The notes below the pieces were generated by a model, which saw only the letters and a list, made by a program, of their open reading frames with translations, was not told the origin of the DNA and did not search any database. From an archaeon (GTDB lineage: Archaea; Undinarchaeota; Undinarchaeia; Undinarchaeales; JBDRKL01), in assembly GCA_043814055.1 (NCBI GenBank), contig JBDRKL010000009.1:17751-81750 (forward strand): DNA of 64,000 nucleotides, in the 5' to 3' direction. This document shows, in pieces, positions 13,948-47,797 of this stretch. Both the position numbers and the translations under genes were made by a program. How positions within the stretch are numbered: position 1 is the first letter of the stretch; each line of letters starts with the position of its first letter.

Positions 13948-14769
13948 ATGATGGAATCATACTACGAAAAACCAGGATTTAAGCTATATCACTCGGATTC
14001 GTTTGAACTTTTGAAGGATTTGCCAGAGAATTCTGTAGATATGATTTTTGCCGATCCACCATATTTCCTTTCAAACGGCAGTTTCACATGTCAAAATGGA
14101 AAAATGGTTAGCGTAAAGAAAGGAAATTGGGACATGGGCAATGGCACAAAACAAGATTTTGATTTTCATTTGGATTGGCTAAACGCTTGCAGGAGAGTCC
14201 TAAAGCCAAATGGAACAATTTGGATTAGCGGAACATACCACTCAATTTACCAGTGCGGCTTTGCACTACAAATGAATAATTTCCACATTTTGAATGATAT
14301 TGCCTGGTTTAAGCCTAACGCCTCACCTAATTTGAGCTGCAGATTCTTTACCGCTAGCCACGAAACCCTAATTTGGGCTCGCAAGAATAAGGAAGCAAAG
14401 CACACTTTTAATTATGATATTACTAAAACCGGAAACTGGCCTGAAGACCAGTTAAAAAAAGAGGGGTTACAGATGCGCTCTGTTTGGTCAATACCAACGC
14501 CCAAGCCACAGGAGAAAACCTTCGGCAAACACCCAACGCAAAAGTCATTGGATCTGCTGAGAAGAATTGTATTAGCAAGCACTAACAAGGGCGATTTGAT
14601 TCTTGATCCTTTTACAGGAAGCTCCACAACAGGTCTGGCTGCCCATATGTATGGAAGGGATTTTATTGGAATTGACAATGAACAAAAATATCTAGATCTA
14701 TCCATTAAACGCTTTGAAGAACTGGAAAATAATCTAAAAAAAGAGAAAACCACCGGCGGTTTGATATGA
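13948..14769 (+). CDS. Beta-class N6/N4 DNA methyltransferase (DpnA-like)
   Basis: DMIFADPPY before HPTQK and LDPFTGSSTTG; adjacent to a DpnII-like endonuclease. Confidence 0.92.
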   Translation: MMESYYEKPGFKLYHSDSFELLKDLPENSVDMIFADPPYFLSNGSFTCQNGKMVSVKKGNWDMGNGTKQDFDFHLDWLNACRRVLKPNGTIWISGTYHSIYQCGFALQMNNFHILNDIAWFKPNASPNLSCRFFTASHETLIWARKNKEAKHTFNYDITKTGNWPEDQLKKEGLQMRSVWSIPTPKPQEKTFGKHPTQKSLDLLRRIVLASTNKGDLILDPFTGSSTTGLAAHMYGRDFIGIDNEQKYLDLSIKRFEELENNLKKEKTTGGLI

Positions 14770-15683
14770 AAAAAATTGAATTTTATGAAAAGACGCTAAA
14801 ATGCAACACAGCGGATGAAGTTTTTAACCACATTATTTCAACTTTTAAACCAAGCATACTTACATGGTCTTATTTTGTGAATTGGGATAAGGTTTTTCAG
14901 AACACGAAAGATATTGAGATAGGGCTTAACAAACTAAATTATCTAATCGGCAAAGAGGATTTTGATAAAGAATTCAGATATCTAATAAAAAAAGAGGCAG
15001 AGCTTCTAAAAATCATTCCAGCACTGGTTGTGAGGGATGGTCAGAACACTTTAAAATTCAAAATTTTGGTTGATTACAGTCAAAAAAAGATGGTGTATGA
15101 AGAATATGACTTTAACAAAGATACTTTAACAGACGAGAATATTGAAAAGTGCCTGACTTTTGTTAAGGAAACTGGCTTGAAAAAATTGATTACCTCCGGA
15201 AGTATCAAAAATTTAGTGGATTATATGATTGGGGTTGAGGCAGGATTGGACAGCAATGGACGAAAAAACCGTTCCGGCAGTGCAATGGAAAACATTGTTG
15301 AAATGTTCATAAAAGACATTTGCAACAGGAAGAACTTCAGATATTTAAGGCAGGCAGATGCAAAAAAGATCAAAGAAGAGTTTGGATACGATGTCCCGGT
15401 TGACAAGTCATCAAGAAGGTATGATTTTGTAATTGACACTGGAAAAGAGCTTGTCCTTTTTGAAACAAACTTTTACGGCGGCGGTGGCTCAAAACTAAAA
15501 TCAACAGCAGGCGAGTACAGAAATCTGTTTGACATACTTGAAGACAAATACAAATTTATTTGGATTACAGACGGACTTGGCTGGAAAACAACTCAAAAAC
15601 CGTTGCGAGAAACATTTGAGCATAATGATTATCTGTTTAATTTGGATATGCTGGAAAAAAAGGTATTAGATGTAGTGTTGTAG
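14766..15683 (+). CDS. DpnII-family type II restriction endonuclease
   Basis: GVEAGLDSNGRKNRSG, ETNFYGGGGSKL, FIWITDGLGW motifs. Confidence 0.92.
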   Translation: MKKIEFYEKTLKCNTADEVFNHIISTFKPSILTWSYFVNWDKVFQNTKDIEIGLNKLNYLIGKEDFDKEFRYLIKKEAELLKIIPALVVRDGQNTLKFKILVDYSQKKMVYEEYDFNKDTLTDENIEKCLTFVKETGLKKLITSGSIKNLVDYMIGVEAGLDSNGRKNRSGSAMENIVEMFIKDICNRKNFRYLRQADAKKIKEEFGYDVPVDKSSRRYDFVIDTGKELVLFETNFYGGGGSKLKSTAGEYRNLFDILEDKYKFIWITDGLGWKTTQKPLRETFEHNDYLFNLDMLEKKVLDVVL

Positions 15684-15694
15684 GAGAGTAAGAG

Positions 15695-15766
15695 TGGACC
15701 CGGCCCGGATTGAACGGGCGACCTCTGCCATGTGAGGGCAGTGTCATACCACTAGACCACGGGTCC
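15695..15766 (-). tRNA. tRNA-Val(CAC)
   Basis: Cloverleaf GGACCCG/CGGGTCC; anticodon arm CTGCC-CTCACAT-GGCAG; T-loop TTCAATC; CCA not encoded. Confidence 0.95.
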
Positions 15767-32284: not shown

Positions 32285-32373
32285 GTCGGGGTGGCACAAC
32301 CTGGTACTGCGTAGGGTTGCTAACCCTATTGGACGTAAGTCCTTCGCGAGTTCAAATCTCGTCCCCGACGCCA
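32285..32373 (+). tRNA. tRNA-Ser(GCT)
   Basis: Acceptor GTCGGGG/CCCCGAC; anticodon arm TAGGG-TTGCTAA-CCCTA; long variable arm; encoded CCA. Confidence 0.96.
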
Positions 32374-32380
32374 TACTCAC

Positions 32381-32920
32381 ATGAGCAATGACATAACAAT
32401 ACGTCAAATTAGAATTCAGGATGAGATTCCGCTCTTGAATTCCTTGTATTGGGGAGAATATGAAAAGGGAACATTGGGTGGTGTTTTGCCTCCAATGTCT
32501 GAGAAAGAGATAGTTGACAATAAGTACTATTTTATTCAGAAAAAAGAGCAAATAATAGGAGCTTTTGCATTTCTATCATTCCCAGCTCTTCCAATACAGT
32601 TTACTGACCAGCCACATTTTATGAGACTCATACTAAAAGAGGAGTTCCGAGGGAAAAAAATATTTAGAAAAGTGCATGAGCTTGCATTAATAGAAGCAAA
32701 AAAGCTTGGTTACACAGCAATATACACTAGAATAAATCCATCCAATAGCCAAATGTTGTGGGTAATACAAAAGTATGGATGGGAAAAAATTGCAGATGAT
32801 TCTGTAGATTCTTCACAACTTGACAAAAAGCAGATGTATAAACGTGTTTTGTCACTTATTTTAGAAAAATCTGGGAAAGAGCAAGTATACGAGGATATAA
32901 TTTTTAAGAAAGAATTATAA
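32381..32920 (+). CDS. GNAT-family acetyltransferase (AT-rich)
   Basis: LILKEEFRGKKIF (motif A), NPSN...KYGW (motif B). Confidence 0.8.
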   Translation: MSNDITIRQIRIQDEIPLLNSLYWGEYEKGTLGGVLPPMSEKEIVDNKYYFIQKKEQIIGAFAFLSFPALPIQFTDQPHFMRLILKEEFRGKKIFRKVHELALIEAKKLGYTAIYTRINPSNSQMLWVIQKYGWEKIADDSVDSSQLDKKQMYKRVLSLILEKSGKEQVYEDIIFKKEL

Positions 32921-32947: not shown

Positions 32948-33095
32948 GGGCCCGTGGTCTAGTGGCTATGACGTCTCCCTTACAACCCTTTTGCTTCGCA
33001 AAAGCGTTGACGGAAAAGAAACCGTCTTCGCGGCGATTGGAGCACGAGGGAAAGAACGGAGAAGTTCACAGGTTCGACTCCTGTTGGGCCCACCA
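32948..33095 (+). tRNA. tRNA-Val(TAC) with 72-nt intron (32985-33056)
   Basis: Acceptor GGGCCCG/TGGGCCC; anticodon stem TCTCC/GGAGA; intron at 37/38 in a relaxed BHB; encoded CCA. Confidence 0.9.
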
Positions 33096-36993: not shown

Positions 36994-37094
36994 AGCCCCG
37001 TAGTGTAGCGGCCAAGCACTCCGGCCTTTGACCTGTGTTTGATAAAAACTCAGGAAGACAGCCGGTAACGGCAGTTCGAATCTGCCCGGGGCTA
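36994..37094 (+). tRNA. tRNA-Gln(TTG) with 28-nt intron (37032-37059)
   Basis: Acceptor AGCCCCG/CGGGGCT; anticodon stem CCGGC/GCCGG; BHB at 37/38. Confidence 0.93.
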
Positions 37095-37095
37095 C

Positions 37096-38454
37096 TCAAA
37101 ATTTAGTGGTTAGTATTTTTTGCTTTTTTGCATAGAGAGTGATAAGAAAGTTTAATTTTTGTTTCCATTTATGTGATTTAAAATCAGCAGGGTATATTTC
37201 TATAAGTTTGCTTTGAAACCCTAGTTTTTGATACAGAGGTAACTTAACCTCAATAGTTTTGATGTCATAAAATTCCTTTCCAGCAAGCCCCCAAATTTCA
37301 ACCCAGTGCTGTCCTATTTTAAAATCCGTACGAGATTTTGGGTCTGTTTTAGATTTGGATATTCTCACCCCAACTTGATGGGAAATGCCATTATAAAATA
37401 GCCAATTGTCAACAACACGCTCATAAGTAGAATTAACCATATGGCCATCTTTACATACTAATTTCTCTGTGTAACCGAATAGAGAGGCTCGTATAGGGAT
37501 ATTATATTCTTTTAGCCACCTTATTACAGAAGTAGAAGCAACTCCACAGGATAATGCAATCTCATAAGAAGATAGTTTATCATTTAAATACCATCCAATA
37601 AGCTCAGTTCTAGTAGGCTTATATGAATTAAATAATCGGGTCTCACTAGAGGTTCTTGATTCAACCCTATATCTTTTTAATAAGTTTGAAATGGACACAT
37701 CACTAATGTTGTACATATTTGCTATCTGGCATATAGAGAATCCCTTTTTAACATATAGGTCTTGCAATTCTTGTTTAATGGGGAACTTTGCGTCTTTTTT
37801 GAGATTTCGGGAACCCCCTTTTCGGATAGGTATACCATATTTTTTTAACCATCTAGCAACACTGCCCTTGGTAACTCTGCAGATTTTTGCAATTTTAATA
37901 GTTGATTGATGTTCATCTAGATACCACTGTTCTAATTCTTTTTTTGAAGGCACATACGATTTAAAAAGACGAGTTTCAATACCTTTTCTTGCTGTTATCC
38001 CATATTTTTTCAGATAATCGGCAATCGTAGATGGATCGATATTACATAGTTTTCCTATCTTCAAAACAGATAAACCTTGAACTAAATACCAATCTTGAAG
38101 TTCTTCTTGAGTAGGCATATGAGCATTTGATTTAAGATTTGCTTCAGAAGCAGAACGGATAGAGACTTTGTATTTTTTTAATAGGCGTCCAATAACTGAA
38201 CGGGATACACCATATTTTTTTGCTATTATTAGAGGATGTACTCTTTGTGTCAGATACATTGCCTCTAATTCACTTTTGGACGGAAGAACAACCCCTTCGT
38301 TTAAACGTGCCTCAGAGGGCGTCCTTACTAAATTTCTTTTTTTTAGAAATTGCCAAACAAAACCCTGAGAAACATTTAAGATTTTTGCAATCTCGTGTGT
38401 TGTTTTTCTTTTAGTTATATATAAGTCGATAATTTGTTTCTCATCAATTTCCAT
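37096..38454 (-). CDS. Six tandem HTH repeats fused to a putative PD-(D/E)xK-like endonuclease
   Basis: ~56-aa repeats (P.k.EL..wY.....S...IA....vs...v...LKKY.I.iR); C-terminal DGHMVNSTYE..VDNWL..NGI...TDF...WVEIWG; very AT-rich. Confidence 0.75.
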   Translation of the reverse strand: MEIDEKQIIDLYITKRKTTHEIAKILNVSQGFVWQFLKKRNLVRTPSEARLNEGVVLPSKSELEAMYLTQRVHPLIIAKKYGVSRSVIGRLLKKYKVSIRSASEANLKSNAHMPTQEELQDWYLVQGLSVLKIGKLCNIDPSTIADYLKKYGITARKGIETRLFKSYVPSKKELEQWYLDEHQSTIKIAKICRVTKGSVARWLKKYGIPIRKGGSRNLKKDAKFPIKQELQDLYVKKGFSICQIANMYNISDVSISNLLKRYRVESRTSSETRLFNSYKPTRTELIGWYLNDKLSSYEIALSCGVASTSVIRWLKEYNIPIRASLFGYTEKLVCKDGHMVNSTYERVVDNWLFYNGISHQVGVRISKSKTDPKSRTDFKIGQHWVEIWGLAGKEFYDIKTIEVKLPLYQKLGFQSKLIEIYPADFKSHKWKQKLNFLITLYAKKQKILTTKF

Positions 38455-38485
38455 ACTAAATACTCCACTTAGTTTTCAAACCTTA

Positions 38486-39097
38486 TTAATCCAATTCAAC
38501 CCCAAACCCTTTCAAATCCTCTTTGAGCTTTTCTGAATTTTCAAACAAAACCGCATTCATACCCAAAGATTTCGCAATATCAACAAACGCCTGAATATCG
38601 TCAATAAACAAAACCTCTTCTGGTTTAAGATTCAACTTGTCCAGCGCGAATTTGAAAAACTCAGGGTTGTCCTTGGTCATCTTCGCGTCAACTGATGCAA
38701 TGATTCCCTCTAGAAAATCAAACCAGCCCTGCTGAACCACGATGTCTTTGTGCTTCTGTATCGCGTTTGTGAGCGCGACAATTTTGTAATTCTTTTTGAG
38801 CTCAAGCGCGATTTCTTTAACCGACTCGTTCACCTTGACCATTTCAGCATAGTTCCAAACGAAGATTGCCTTGAGCAAGTCCAAATTCACGTCCTTGCCC
38901 ATGCGCTCGTTGAGCTTTTTCAAGAACTCTGTGCCGCTCATCTCGCCCCTGCACGCAGGGAGCGATTCCATGTTTATTATTTTCCAGAACTCAGGCTTGC
39001 CCTCTCCCTTTACCCCGTAGAACTCCGCGGCTTTTTCAAGAATCGGGCGCATGTCAAGCAATACACCGCCGATATCAAACATAATTGTAGTAATCAT
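38486..39097 (-). CDS. HAD-superfamily phosphatase
   Basis: FDIGGVL, LTNA, LFIDD motifs. Confidence 0.92.
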   Translation of the reverse strand: MITTIMFDIGGVLLDMRPILEKAAEFYGVKGEGKPEFWKIINMESLPACRGEMSGTEFLKKLNERMGKDVNLDLLKAIFVWNYAEMVKVNESVKEIALELKKNYKIVALTNAIQKHKDIVVQQGWFDFLEGIIASVDAKMTKDNPEFFKFALDKLNLKPEEVLFIDDIQAFVDIAKSLGMNAVLFENSEKLKEDLKGFGVELD

Positions 39098-40269
39098 TTA
39101 AACCCCAGGAGAATGTCCCGCGCGGTCTTTCCAACCTTTTTCAAATTTTCCTCCTTGCAGTAAACTCCAACATTCCAGTAGGCCCATTGCTCGTCCTTGA
39201 GCGACTTGAGCAGGAGCGACACATCCGTGAGCTTTACAGGCTTGCCCTTCTGCATTATGGTTGCCTCAGCCTCTTTTGGGTAGAGTGGCGGCGGAATGTC
39301 CAGGAGAACTTCGCCATCAGCCAACCCGCAGGTGTCTGTGAGCTCAATCTCAAGCGCGCGGAGCTTTTTTGACGTCAGGCTGATGAGCTTTTTGGGCGGT
39401 ATTCCAAAATCAGAAATCTCCAGCACTGCGGCGCGCTTGTAGAGCCGCCTTGATTCTATTCGCTCTATCATTTCGTTGTCAAGCGACCTGAGCTTTGCGA
39501 TTATACCAATGTCGTCCATTGCATAGAGCTCATCAACTGTGAATAAATTCTCGCGCAGGCAGGAAAGCACTGCGCTCGTGAACATTGAGTTTATTATACG
39601 CACTGTGTGATGCTCGTAGACATTCGGGTACATCAAGTACCTGCCCTGCACAAGCGACTCAGCTGCGGAGAGTCCGCCCTCTGCAAGCACTAGCTTGCGG
39701 TTGTAGAGCTTCAAGACGCTGAGCAGGCGGTCAATGTCAATCATCCCGTACGCAGCGCCTGTGTAATATGAATCGCGAACAAGATAGTCCATCCGGTCTA
39801 TGTCAATCTCACCAGAAAGGATTTCGCCGAGCTGGGTTTCTCCAGATACAATTTTTGCAATCTCGTCCGGCTTGAAACCGAGCTTTTTTATTAAATCCGC
39901 GAGCCTGCTCTTTTTTATCAGGTTAATGGTTTTCCCCTCGTGCTTGCCCTCGTCTCCGATATGCGCCTTTATGACATCCTCTGAAGTATGCGAAAGCGGG
40001 CCGTGGCCAACGTCGTGCAGGAGAGCGGCGAGCTTTATTTTCTCAGCAGCGTCCGTTTCAAGCTCAATGTTTTCCGCGAGCCTGCCCGCAAGATAGAAAG
40101 TTCCAAGAGAATGCTCAAAGCGGGTGTGCGTCGCTGTTGGGTAAACAAGGTATGTGAACCCGAGCTGCTTGATGTTCCGAAGGCGCTGCATCTGAGGCGA
40201 GTCCAGCATTTCAATCTCACCATCTGAGACTTTTATGTTGCCATGCACTGCGTCGCGTATCGTTTTCAT
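39094..40269 (-). CDS. HD-domain phosphohydrolase (SAMHD1/dNTPase-like)
   Basis: IRDAVHG, QRLRNIKQLG, HTRFEHSLG, LLHDVGHGPLSH, DRMDYLVRD. Confidence 0.93.
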   Translation of the reverse strand: MKTIRDAVHGNIKVSDGEIEMLDSPQMQRLRNIKQLGFTYLVYPTATHTRFEHSLGTFYLAGRLAENIELETDAAEKIKLAALLHDVGHGPLSHTSEDVIKAHIGDEGKHEGKTINLIKKSRLADLIKKLGFKPDEIAKIVSGETQLGEILSGEIDIDRMDYLVRDSYYTGAAYGMIDIDRLLSVLKLYNRKLVLAEGGLSAAESLVQGRYLMYPNVYEHHTVRIINSMFTSAVLSCLRENLFTVDELYAMDDIGIIAKLRSLDNEMIERIESRRLYKRAAVLEISDFGIPPKKLISLTSKKLRALEIELTDTCGLADGEVLLDIPPPLYPKEAEATIMQKGKPVKLTDVSLLLKSLKDEQWAYWNVGVYCKEENLKKVGKTARDILLGFK

Positions 40270-44279: not shown

Positions 44280-44361
44280 AATTTGTGGACAAAGAGCCTA
44301 CTTTATGGACTGACTCCTTTTATTCATAAAGATTAAATAAGCATATTTGTTATGTAAGGAT

Positions 44362-45228
44362 ATGAAAAAGTTATCAAAAATTCTATTGATAATAGGTATT
44401 ATATTACTTATTCTTTCTATTGGAGCTATACTTCAAGCAACAAAATTTGTTTCTGAAGCAAAATCTATGCTTGAATCTAGAGACGCACAAGAAATTGAGT
44501 TATATTCTCCGGGGGAGATAGCAGAAGCGGAACTGAGCTGTTCATGGAGTGCAGATACAATGTTTAAACAACCGAACGAGGTAGTTAATATTATTACTGA
44601 AGAAGAAGCTAAAGATTATCTAGAATCTTATTATGCAAATACTATTTCTAGGGTTAAAAGTCAACCATTACTTCAATATTTCTCTTCGATTACCCTACTT
44701 GAAAGAGATAGTGATATCTTTGTCAAGATTGATAACAATCTTTGTTCAAAATTATTTCCAATAACTGGTTTCAAATTTGAAGGAAAGTATGGTAATAGCA
44801 TTGTAAATAGTTATTTAGTCACTAAAGCCGGAGAAGTATATCAGTATAATCTAAATAAAGATAATTGTGTTGAATCTTACTTAGAACATTGTTTATCTAA
44901 CACTGAAAATGAAAAGCTAGAACCTCTCGTTCCTTTAATCTCTACAGTGATTATAGAAGAAGATGTAATTCGAGATGTAGAAACTAGAATCGCTCCTAGC
45001 AAAACAGCAGTAGATAATAATTGTATGTTTATAGATTATTCAGATATTCAAAAAGAGATTGCAGAAATAAGGGAGTCTAAAGGTTACATTGTAACTTTAA
45101 CTATACGAGGAGACATAGAAAAAAGGGTTTATGATTGGGGCTCATGCCAACCTGTTGAAATAAGGTCAATTTGCGGAGCTCATGAATGGCAGTGTATTAA
45201 TGTTAAAGAAGTTATAGGTGTCGTATAA
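44362..45228 (+). CDS. AT-rich membrane-anchored/exported hypothetical protein
   Basis: N-terminal signal anchor; paired cysteines; composition differs from flanking genes. Confidence 0.65.
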   Translation: MKKLSKILLIIGIILLILSIGAILQATKFVSEAKSMLESRDAQEIELYSPGEIAEAELSCSWSADTMFKQPNEVVNIITEEEAKDYLESYYANTISRVKSQPLLQYFSSITLLERDSDIFVKIDNNLCSKLFPITGFKFEGKYGNSIVNSYLVTKAGEVYQYNLNKDNCVESYLEHCLSNTENEKLEPLVPLISTVIIEEDVIRDVETRIAPSKTAVDNNCMFIDYSDIQKEIAEIRESKGYIVTLTIRGDIEKRVYDWGSCQPVEIRSICGAHEWQCINVKEVIGVV

Positions 45229-47116: not shown

Positions 47117-47797
47117 ATGGCTTATGATTTACACTCAATAGAACCAGATCAAGATTTAAGATATGACAACAGACCGAGTTATTTTAAAATGCGAGATAAC
47201 TCACTATTAAAAATATATAGCGAAACATATTTTAAAAAACTCAAAAAGTTCCCGGATGAAGCGGTTTTGTTCAGGCTGGAGCTGTCAGCAAATTTAAATA
47301 TCTATAAAGAGACACACTGGGAACGTTCATTTTGGGAGATTCCAAAAAATAAACCGAAAAAAATTGAGAGCTATATACAATTTGTCGATAAGATGTATAA
47401 TTGCTGGAGGTCAGTTATTGACTGGTATTCTTGGTATGAGTATAAGAAATATTTTCTGGGCGGTACTTTGTGGGATAAGTTAAAAACAGAAACTGGGAAA
47501 AAAGATGCAGAGATTAAAGAGAGGGTTTATGGAAAACACTTTTTAACAGAACAGAAAGTAATCAATATTTTTAAGATGTCAGCAAAACAAATGTTTATGC
47601 CGACCTGGTTGATTCCAGAAGACATTAAAAAAATAGAAGGTTTTTGGGGTGGCGGAGACTGGAAAAAGGATAAAAAAATATGCTCATTTAATAGGAAGAA
47701 TCATGAGGAATGGAGAAATATAAAAGTTTTTGATATTCTCTTCTGTAGATTTTTTGACAATGTGGTTGAAAAAAAGATGCTTGGTGATGACATATAG
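47117..47797 (+). CDS. AT-rich hypothetical protein
   Basis: 226-aa aromatic/Lys-rich ORF; no motif recognised. Confidence 0.6.
   Translation: MAYDLHSIEPDQDLRYDNRPSYFKMRDNSLLKIYSETYFKKLKKFPDEAVLFRLELSANLNIYKETHWERSFWEIPKNKPKKIESYIQFVDKMYNCWRSVIDWYSWYEYKKYFLGGTLWDKLKTETGKKDAEIKERVYGKHFLTEQKVINIFKMSAKQMFMPTWLIPEDIKKIEGFWGGGDWKKDKKICSFNRKNHEEWRNIKVFDILFCRFFDNVVEKKMLGDDI

Follow-up and report, generated by a model that had tools for sequence, protein, structure and literature searches.

A minus-strand gene at positions 37096-38454 of the 64-kb stretch of archaeal DNA analysed here (contig JBDRKL010000009.1; "the window" below) encodes a 452-amino-acid (aa) protein in which six helix-turn-helix (HTH) repeats are followed by a C-terminal nuclease-fold domain. 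The gene is foreign in composition, and it is an insertion into a variable slot at the end of a tRNA-Gln gene. As far as profile searches can define it, the nuclease domain marks a large unnamed family for which Pfam, NCBIfam and PHROG hold no model. We consider it probable, on the strength of its fold, conserved residues, relatives and context and not of any activity, that the gene encodes a horizontally acquired, free-standing homing-type endonuclease.

Composition and distribution set the gene apart from its surroundings. The first-pass annotation, which was made from the letters alone, had called it very AT-rich, and its GC content is 0.335 against 0.469 for the window. The GC content at third codon positions (GC3) is 0.247, against 0.583 and 0.612 for the next two genes on the same strand, which encode a HAD hydrolase and an HD-domain protein. 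The nuclease domain has no match in any of the 40 related genomes searched, all 72-100% complete and drawn from the same order, phylum or domain. In its own genome (0.98 Mb, 14 contigs, 82% complete), which Archaea_SRP RNA and aTrm56 mark as archaeal, the gene is single-copy.

The slot and its borders comprise the following genes:

37096-38454, minus strand: the whole nuclease gene, six HTH repeats and nuclease domain, with an ATG start and a stop codon at 37096-37098
36994-37094, plus strand: intron-bearing tRNA-Gln(UUG) gene (Rfam, 51.9 bits, E 7.4e-09), converging on the nuclease gene
38486-39097, minus strand: HAD-family hydrolase gene, inside the variable slot, with host-like codon GC (GC3 0.583)
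39094-40269, minus strand: HD-domain gene, conserved, which closes the slot on its far side

Gene order around the slot is conserved among relatives, while its contents are not. The order Trm56, a 141-aa open reading frame (ORF), tRNA-Gln, slot, HD, FKBP is fully kept in the related genome G003. The G001 locus covers the 141-aa ORF, tRNA-Gln and HD, the G009 locus covers tRNA-Gln, HD and FKBP, and both have the same convergent arrangement. The linkage of tRNA-Gln(UUG) to HD is old. Measured from the tRNA 3' end to the HD stop codon, the slot of the genome studied here is 2001 nucleotides (nt) long, against 499 nt in G003, 421 nt in G009 and as few as 2 nt in G001. The G001 slot (locus L172, 2677-2678) has nothing inside; G009 (L174, 2677-3097) and G003 (L176, 999-1497, slot GC 0.27) carry unrelated small AT-rich ORFs, of 122 aa in the former and, in the latter, lysine-rich with an open frame of 132 aa. 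The studied genome carries the HAD and nuclease genes. In a further relative (G014; L179, 977-1500) the slot holds a 165-aa ORF that looks acetyltransferase-like by eye, and the tRNA is oppositely oriented. The slot at the tRNA-Gln end is a hot spot of gene turnover, and because it varies among relatives between a conserved tRNA-Gln and a conserved HD gene, the nuclease gene is an insertion into it. The G001 tRNA-Gln/HD junction is an empty site, at inter-family distance. The HAD gene is matched in 3 of the 40 relatives, never within the tRNA-Gln/HD slot, and its host-like codon GC suggests an older or separate arrival.

At its downstream end the nuclease gene meets the tRNA almost without a gap. 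The genes converge and base 37095 alone intervenes, in agreement with the earlier remark that the stop codon lies 1 nt from the tRNA end. The anticodon loop of the tRNA reads CUUUGA with a 30-nt insertion, giving Gln(UUG), and the intron, with boundaries taken from the Rfam alignment, measures about 28 nt (about 37032-37059) at the usual 37/38 position. ARAGORN missed this gene at 36994-37094, which Rfam detected. Two further elements flank the coding sequence:

37116-37129, plus strand: two T6 runs (37116-37121 and 37124-37129), 22-35 nt past the tRNA end and opposite the codons of the conserved KKQK tail of the nuclease gene
38463-38466, minus strand: GGAG, a likely ribosome-binding site judging from the sequence, 8 nt 5' of the nuclease ATG

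The T6 runs possibly form an oligo-T terminator for tRNA-Gln. Upstream, the gap between the HAD stop codon and the nuclease ATG is only 31 nt, and the nuclease gene is probably the last gene of an HD-HAD transcript. An exact 11-nt direct repeat, AAAAACTCAGG, occurs at 37044-37054 in the tRNA intron and at 38655-38665 in the HAD gene, probably by chance; read on the minus strand, the copy in the intron forms a T5 run immediately 3' of the nuclease gene. Integrase-type att repeats were considered and rejected: the tRNA 3' end is not duplicated around the gene, and this chance-like 11-nt repeat is the sole flanking direct repeat. In another relative (G015, locus L180) a 20-nt copy of the tRNA-Gln 5' end (1377-1396) lies about 56 nt upstream of an intact tRNA-Gln (1246-1321).

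Several lines of evidence indicate the nature of the C-terminal domain:

37099-37464, minus strand: C-terminal nuclease-fold domain (aa 331-452), delimited by homologue alignment, profile match and AlphaFold2 (AF2) model

The nuclease-like motif S..E...DNWL...DF...VE.WG, picked out at first pass, is present and conserved across the family. When the domain is aligned with 28 short homologues, eight columns are invariant (G337, S342, E345, D377, E386, G389, Y396 and K404), and all eight residues, together with the conserved C-terminal tail, are intact in the 452-aa protein. Residues 320-452 match nothing in NCBIfam or PHROG, and in Pfam only DUF5050, at an E value of 0.035, below cut-off; Phage_endo_I (PF05367) and DUF559 (PF04480) do not match the domain. 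Among solved structures the domain profile matches T7 endonuclease I best (2pfj, E 0.0075; 1m0d, E 0.011). The catalytic residues of T7 endonuclease I are E20, D55, E65 and K67. The S-x-x-E, D-F and V/I-E-x-x-G motifs of the domain fall on S17/E20, D55 and E65 of the T7 enzyme, so that E345, D377 and E386 occupy the positions of its three acidic residues, and the position of K67 is taken by W388; tryptophan is the family norm there, and the invariant K404 is predicted on the helix that follows. The third profile match is I-Bth0305I (3r3p, E 0.21), which aligns across the whole domain.

Structure prediction led to the same group of enzymes. The AF2 model of the domain (pLDDT 88.4, pTM 0.80) has 3r3p_A as its best Foldseek match in the PDB (probability 0.92, TM 0.69 by target and 0.53 by query, E 0.22), with further PDB matches to R2 endonuclease domains, PvuRts1I, Bax1, DrdV, Hjc, EndoMS and RecU. 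Viral models (BFVD) gave three fold matches at E<=0.001, and the named BFVD matches include DUF559, Endonuclease I, Homing endonuclease, Group I intron protein and DNA mismatch endonuclease. Neighbours in the ESM Atlas that carry DUF559 or Phage_endo_I score 0.87-0.88 and are leads only; a homodimer prediction for the domain scored 0.01, which is uninformative either way. From profile and model together we conclude that the domain has a predicted PD-(D/E)xK fold in the neighbourhood of T7 endonuclease I, Vsr and DUF559. The check proposed at first pass came out in favour of a nuclease fold.

The two best-matching enzymes nevertheless differ from the protein. T7 endonuclease I, apart from the lysine it has at the position of W388, resolves junctions in a structure-specific manner and has no HTH array. 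I-Bth0305I is built more similarly, from an N-terminal HTH (NUMOD-type) region and a C-terminal Vsr/PD-(D/E)xK nuclease of about 100 aa (PDB 3R3P), and its EDxHD motif consists of E170, D196, N208 (the x), H213 and D222 (PMC3239194). On these assignments E170 and D196 align with E345 and D377, and N208 with W388, whereas H213 and D222 fall on non-conserved positions of our family, which keeps E386, Y396 and K404 instead. Because the H and the last D of EDxHD are missing, the family is a sister of the EDxHD enzymes and not a member. The EDxHD family alignment, in the supplement of PMC3239194, might include some of its proteins. The protein also has six repeats to the two of I-Bth0305I, and it is free-standing in an archaeal chromosome whereas I-Bth0305I lies inside a phage group I intron.

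The N-terminal part of the protein consists of tri-helical HTH repeats of 55/56 aa, which start at residues 1, 58, 114, 170, 226 and 282:

38284-38454, minus strand: HTH repeat 1 (aa 1-57), which diverges most, recognition helix SQGFV
38116-38283, minus strand: HTH repeat 2 (aa 58-113), type A, recognition helix SRSVI
37948-38115, minus strand: HTH repeat 3 (aa 114-169), type B, linker ETRLFKSY, recognition helix DPSTI
37780-37947, minus strand: HTH repeat 4 (aa 170-225), type A, recognition helix TKGSV
37612-37779, minus strand: HTH repeat 5 (aa 226-281), type B, linker ETRLFNSY, recognition helix SDVSI
37489-37611, minus strand: HTH repeat 6 (aa 282-322), type A, recognition helix ASTSV

The six repeats of about 56 aa, and the variable recognition helices, were described in the first-pass annotation; all six helices stand in the translation as given, and the repeats are confirmed statistically, since each of the 15 repeat pairs outscores all 200 shuffles (z 6.3-24), at pairwise identities of 24-44%. 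In Pfam the array matches HTH_23 (E 1.4e-21, four stretches), and the best 25 of the 37 families matched include no NUMOD and no HNH model. Compared with itself, the protein is most alike at a shift of 111 aa (identity 0.34, versus 0.18-0.20 at 55/56 aa and a background of about 0.05), and DNA self-identity reaches 0.49 at 333 nt versus about 0.28-0.29; the two-repeat unit is therefore real. This backs the pairwise duplication that had been read from the alternating linkers ETRLFKSY and ETRLFNSY, both of which are present. The alternation of linker types is visible by eye in the homologue P0004 and less clearly in P0003, and the two-repeat unit may therefore predate the nuclease gene. In the full-length AlphaFold model (pLDDT 71.1, pTM 0.34) each repeat has three helices and the inter-repeat linkers fall below 50, which suggests that the modules are arranged as beads on a string and not as a rigid solenoid.

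The same HTH module occurs in viral nucleases of another type. The array matches phrog_8446 (8.6e-48) and phrog_7545 (1.2e-32), both named HNH endonuclease, through the repeats only, the best-matched stretches being residues 170-271 and 225-280. By hmmsearch the gp23 protein of the haloarchaeal virus HJTV-4 (OP374082.1) carries four repeats of this type; an HNH motif in its C-terminus was recognised by eye. These HNH homing endonucleases have the module in 4-6 tandem copies and are likewise free-standing genes, in virus structural modules, but their catalytic domain is HNH where the 452-aa protein has PD-(D/E)xK, so that only the array is common.

The family defined by the nuclease domain is large. 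An exhaustive HMMER search with the domain over 1.84 billion representatives of clusters at 50% identity returned 733 proteins (clusters) at E<=0.001, of which 55 reach E<=1e-10; it supersedes a word-indexed homologue search with residues 325-452, in which the query stood alone among 40 candidates. Among the best 149 of the 733 representatives, 81 have one to nine HTH repeats of the same type and 68 have none, and the six repeats of our protein are surpassed only by P0004 (seven) and P0014 (nine). A comparison of repeat number among homologues had been recommended at first pass, and it gives 0 to 9 across the family. One protein, P0002 (3327 aa, E 5e-24), was rejected as a member: only query residues 2-25 were matched, 13 times, and it is the sole protein of the 150 best (149 homologues and the query) that lacks the nuclease domain.

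To place family members in their genomes, loci were found with a back-translated DNA motif pattern, which yielded at least 118 genomic and 24 viral stretches; at least 144 family ORFs in 142 loci were confirmed by hmmsearch. HTH repeats are carried by 22 of the 24 family ORFs on viral contigs and, at threshold, by none of the 120 ORFs listed from cellular genomes, with a repeat model that was built from six sequences and is insensitive. The bacterial members are about 300 aa long; of ten scanned, two have an ANT/KilAC-like N-terminus and none has a Pfam match on the nuclease domain. The homing-endonuclease-associated repeat PF18780 is present in 3 of 29 short members. In two metagenome relatives, L149 and L150, HTH repeats flank the nuclease on both sides. 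L149 (1003-2889, 2908-3258) has six repeats before and three after the nuclease domain, and a small HNH endonuclease gene directly follows it; in L150 (694-2292, 2334-2636), which is also followed by a small HNH gene, the first two repeats are in a separate frame, suggesting a frameshift. Two family members can lie close together, as in the bacterial loci L014 (2053-2937 and 2986-5679, 49 nt apart) and L081 (2938-3699 and 4730-5614, about 1 kb apart), and one of these pair members is an 898-aa form in Methylomonas with its nuclease domain in mid-protein.

The repeat-bearing members, including the nearest relatives of our protein, lie on viral contigs within phage structural modules, and at 12 of the 24 viral loci the family gene abuts an HK97-gp10-like tail-component gene. 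One of these loci, L128, resembles Arthrobacter phages by a 340-nt major-tail-protein match; when phages akin to the viral loci L128 and L140 were searched for empty sites, this was the only match, and L140 gave none. A tblastn search of the nuclease domain against GenBank phages found no match, and the whole protein and a viral homologue found only HJTV-4 gp23 there, via the repeats. Family genes tend to be AT-shifted relative to their flanks (median -0.04), with 74 of 130 loci below -0.03 and 10 above +0.03. Adjacency to a tRNA was rejected as a family trait: 1 of the 144 family ORFs listed lies within 300 nt of a tRNA, and Rfam found one tRNA at eight archaeal family loci. The genomic context of homologues, which the first-pass annotation had also put forward for comparison, includes viral structural modules and, at some bacterial loci, Mrr_cat neighbours.

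The relatives and setting of the 452-aa protein support an assignment to the homing-endonuclease type, as judged from sequence. A nuclease fused to modular DNA-binding domains, a sporadic distribution combined with foreign composition, and an insertion between conserved genes are all found here. A parallel for the location is SegB of phage T4, a GIY-YIG homing endonuclease whose free-standing gene lies within the phage's tRNA gene cluster and biases inheritance of the region. It differs in belonging to another nuclease family and to a phage instead of a cellular genome, and in having no HTH array. On the reading we favour, the nuclease gene was probably brought in by horizontal transfer from a virus or other mobile source. 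Flexible linkers of about 15 aa connect its six independently folded tri-helical HTH modules, which would align the protein with an extended piece of DNA, and the C-terminal PD-(D/E)xK domain would cut, with E345, D377 and E386 holding the metal and K404, on the next helix, standing in for the missing motif lysine. The target may be the junction at the tRNA-Gln 3' end, which is a guess; cutting would be double-stranded, and homing would follow. The modular long-site nuclease envisaged at first pass is upheld insofar as HTH modules are joined to a nuclease-fold domain whose acidic residues fall on a known active site.

A more ambitious reading takes the array as an address code made up of repeats that would each recognise a few bp. 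Arrays of 1-9 repeats would retarget the nuclease to long sites, as a natural HTH counterpart of TALE and zinc-finger nucleases, and the copy studied here would recognise the 3' half of tRNA-Gln, which is conserved, together with the downstream junction. We regard this as very unlikely. As for the first-pass idea that the array may set specificity, in I-Bth0305I, the one relative studied, the 14 bp covered by the nuclease dimer account for most of the specificity, and contacts made by the HTH/NUMOD region are largely non-specific (PMC3239194).

A number of observations weigh against a free-standing homing endonuclease, and some of them favour a stand-alone defence nuclease, acquired from the flexible pool of defence genes, in which the array would recognise viral or plasmid DNA and the PD-(D/E)xK domain would degrade it. 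The empty site is known from a comparison between families only (HD about 55% identical), not between alleles, and homing on an archaeal chromosome is an assumption. Foldseek found no fold match of the domain model in the PDB at E<=0.001, and with W388 in place of the motif lysine, activity cannot be taken for granted. In the ESM Atlas the nuclease domain is also fused to helicase-related and HEAT proteins. A gene for an Mrr-type restriction nuclease (Mrr_cat) adjoins the family gene in 12 of the 118 bacterial loci listed, and the nuclease domain matches the PADLOC candidate PDC-S69 (E 1.3e-09). These last two points speak for defence, as does an AT-rich ORF pair beside a tRNA-Val in the window that reads by eye like a methyltransferase and a restriction enzyme. 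However, the PDC-S69 match is confined to the nuclease domain: residues 329-426 cover positions 178-271 of the 289-position profile, its C-terminal third, and the N-terminal two thirds are unmatched, so that there is no full-length match. The name PDC-S69 was not found in the literature by phrase search, and to our knowledge PDC systems are candidates without experimental test. In bacteria the proteins, about 300 aa long, have another N-terminus, the repeat-bearing subfamily sits in viral structural modules, and no partner gene is conserved family-wide at the loci listed. A defence role is an unlikely explanation of the gene studied here, and it would apply above all to the bacterial branch of the family. 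Of the alternative between homing and defence offered in the first-pass annotation, relatives and setting are thus of the homing type, and the PDC-S69 match speaks for defence.

The replacement of the motif lysine and the single copy of the gene would also suit a domesticated or decaying remnant, that is, a DNA-binding protein (a regulator or chromatin protein) with a non-cutting nuclease domain, or a selfish gene nearing loss, and multi-HTH proteins, among them Cbp1, are weakly matched (NF040595, 38.9 bits, cut-off 140). Yet tryptophan at the lysine position is no private loss, all eight invariant residues are present and the reading frame runs unbroken as far as the conserved C-terminal tail, and the low GC3 indicates little amelioration and suggests recent arrival; we judge such a remnant distinctly unlikely. 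The position of the gene, abutting an intron-bearing tRNA-Gln, raises the further idea of collaborative homing, in which the nuclease would cut intron-less tRNA-Gln alleles and repair would copy both intron and gene. F-CphI, beside an intron-bearing psbA gene, is reportedly a precedent. But introns of 59, 45 and 29 nt interrupt tRNA-Gln(UUG) in G001, G003 and G009, genomes without a nuclease-domain match, which argues against a dependent intron-nuclease pair; according to Rfam, introns are common among the tRNAs of the lineage, and proximity to a tRNA is, as noted, seen for only 1 of the 144 family ORFs listed. Collaborative homing is in our estimation extremely unlikely, and a free-standing homing-type endonuclease is the reading we retain.

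Other AT-rich islets occur in the window, some of them also at tRNA ends. The ORF pair mentioned above occupies an islet at 13948-15683 (GC about 0.36-0.40), with two plus-strand ORFs of 273 and 305 aa; by eye only, the translations resemble a DNA methyltransferase, with a DPPY motif, and a restriction enzyme. This islet stops 10 nt short of the 3' end of a minus-strand tRNA-Val (15694-15766) and is a second foreign-looking insertion at a tRNA end. An AT-rich 179-aa ORF (32381-32920) fills the gap between a tRNA-Ser (32285-32373) and a 145-nt tRNA (32948-33092), which was detected by Rfam only (49 bits) and must carry one or more long introns. Single-gene AT-rich islets at 44347-45228 and 47117-47797 (GC 0.32-0.37) contain ORFs without assigned function, the latter directly following ribosomal L1/L10-like genes.

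What is new here is an unnamed nuclease family, a six-repeat array and a definable slot at an archaeal tRNA end. By title and abstract, the family is not described in the papers found on free-standing homing endonucleases, archaea and tRNA, and may still be published. It would add a large unmodelled nuclease family (733 clusters) to the homing-endonuclease world, with one HTH repeat module, in 0 to 9 copies, common to a PD-(D/E)xK family and to viral HNH nucleases. If the gene is merely another selfish nuclease, the value of the finding is mainly one of annotation. The copy studied here has one of the longest arrays, a cellular setting on the chromosome of a DPANN archaeon and a definable empty site, and it is therefore a practical start for the question of modular long-site recognition. 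It is also useful for asking what turns the ends of tRNA genes into hot spots of insertion in these genomes. Were the array an address code after all, such enzymes would be one cause of gene turnover at tRNA gene ends in small archaea.

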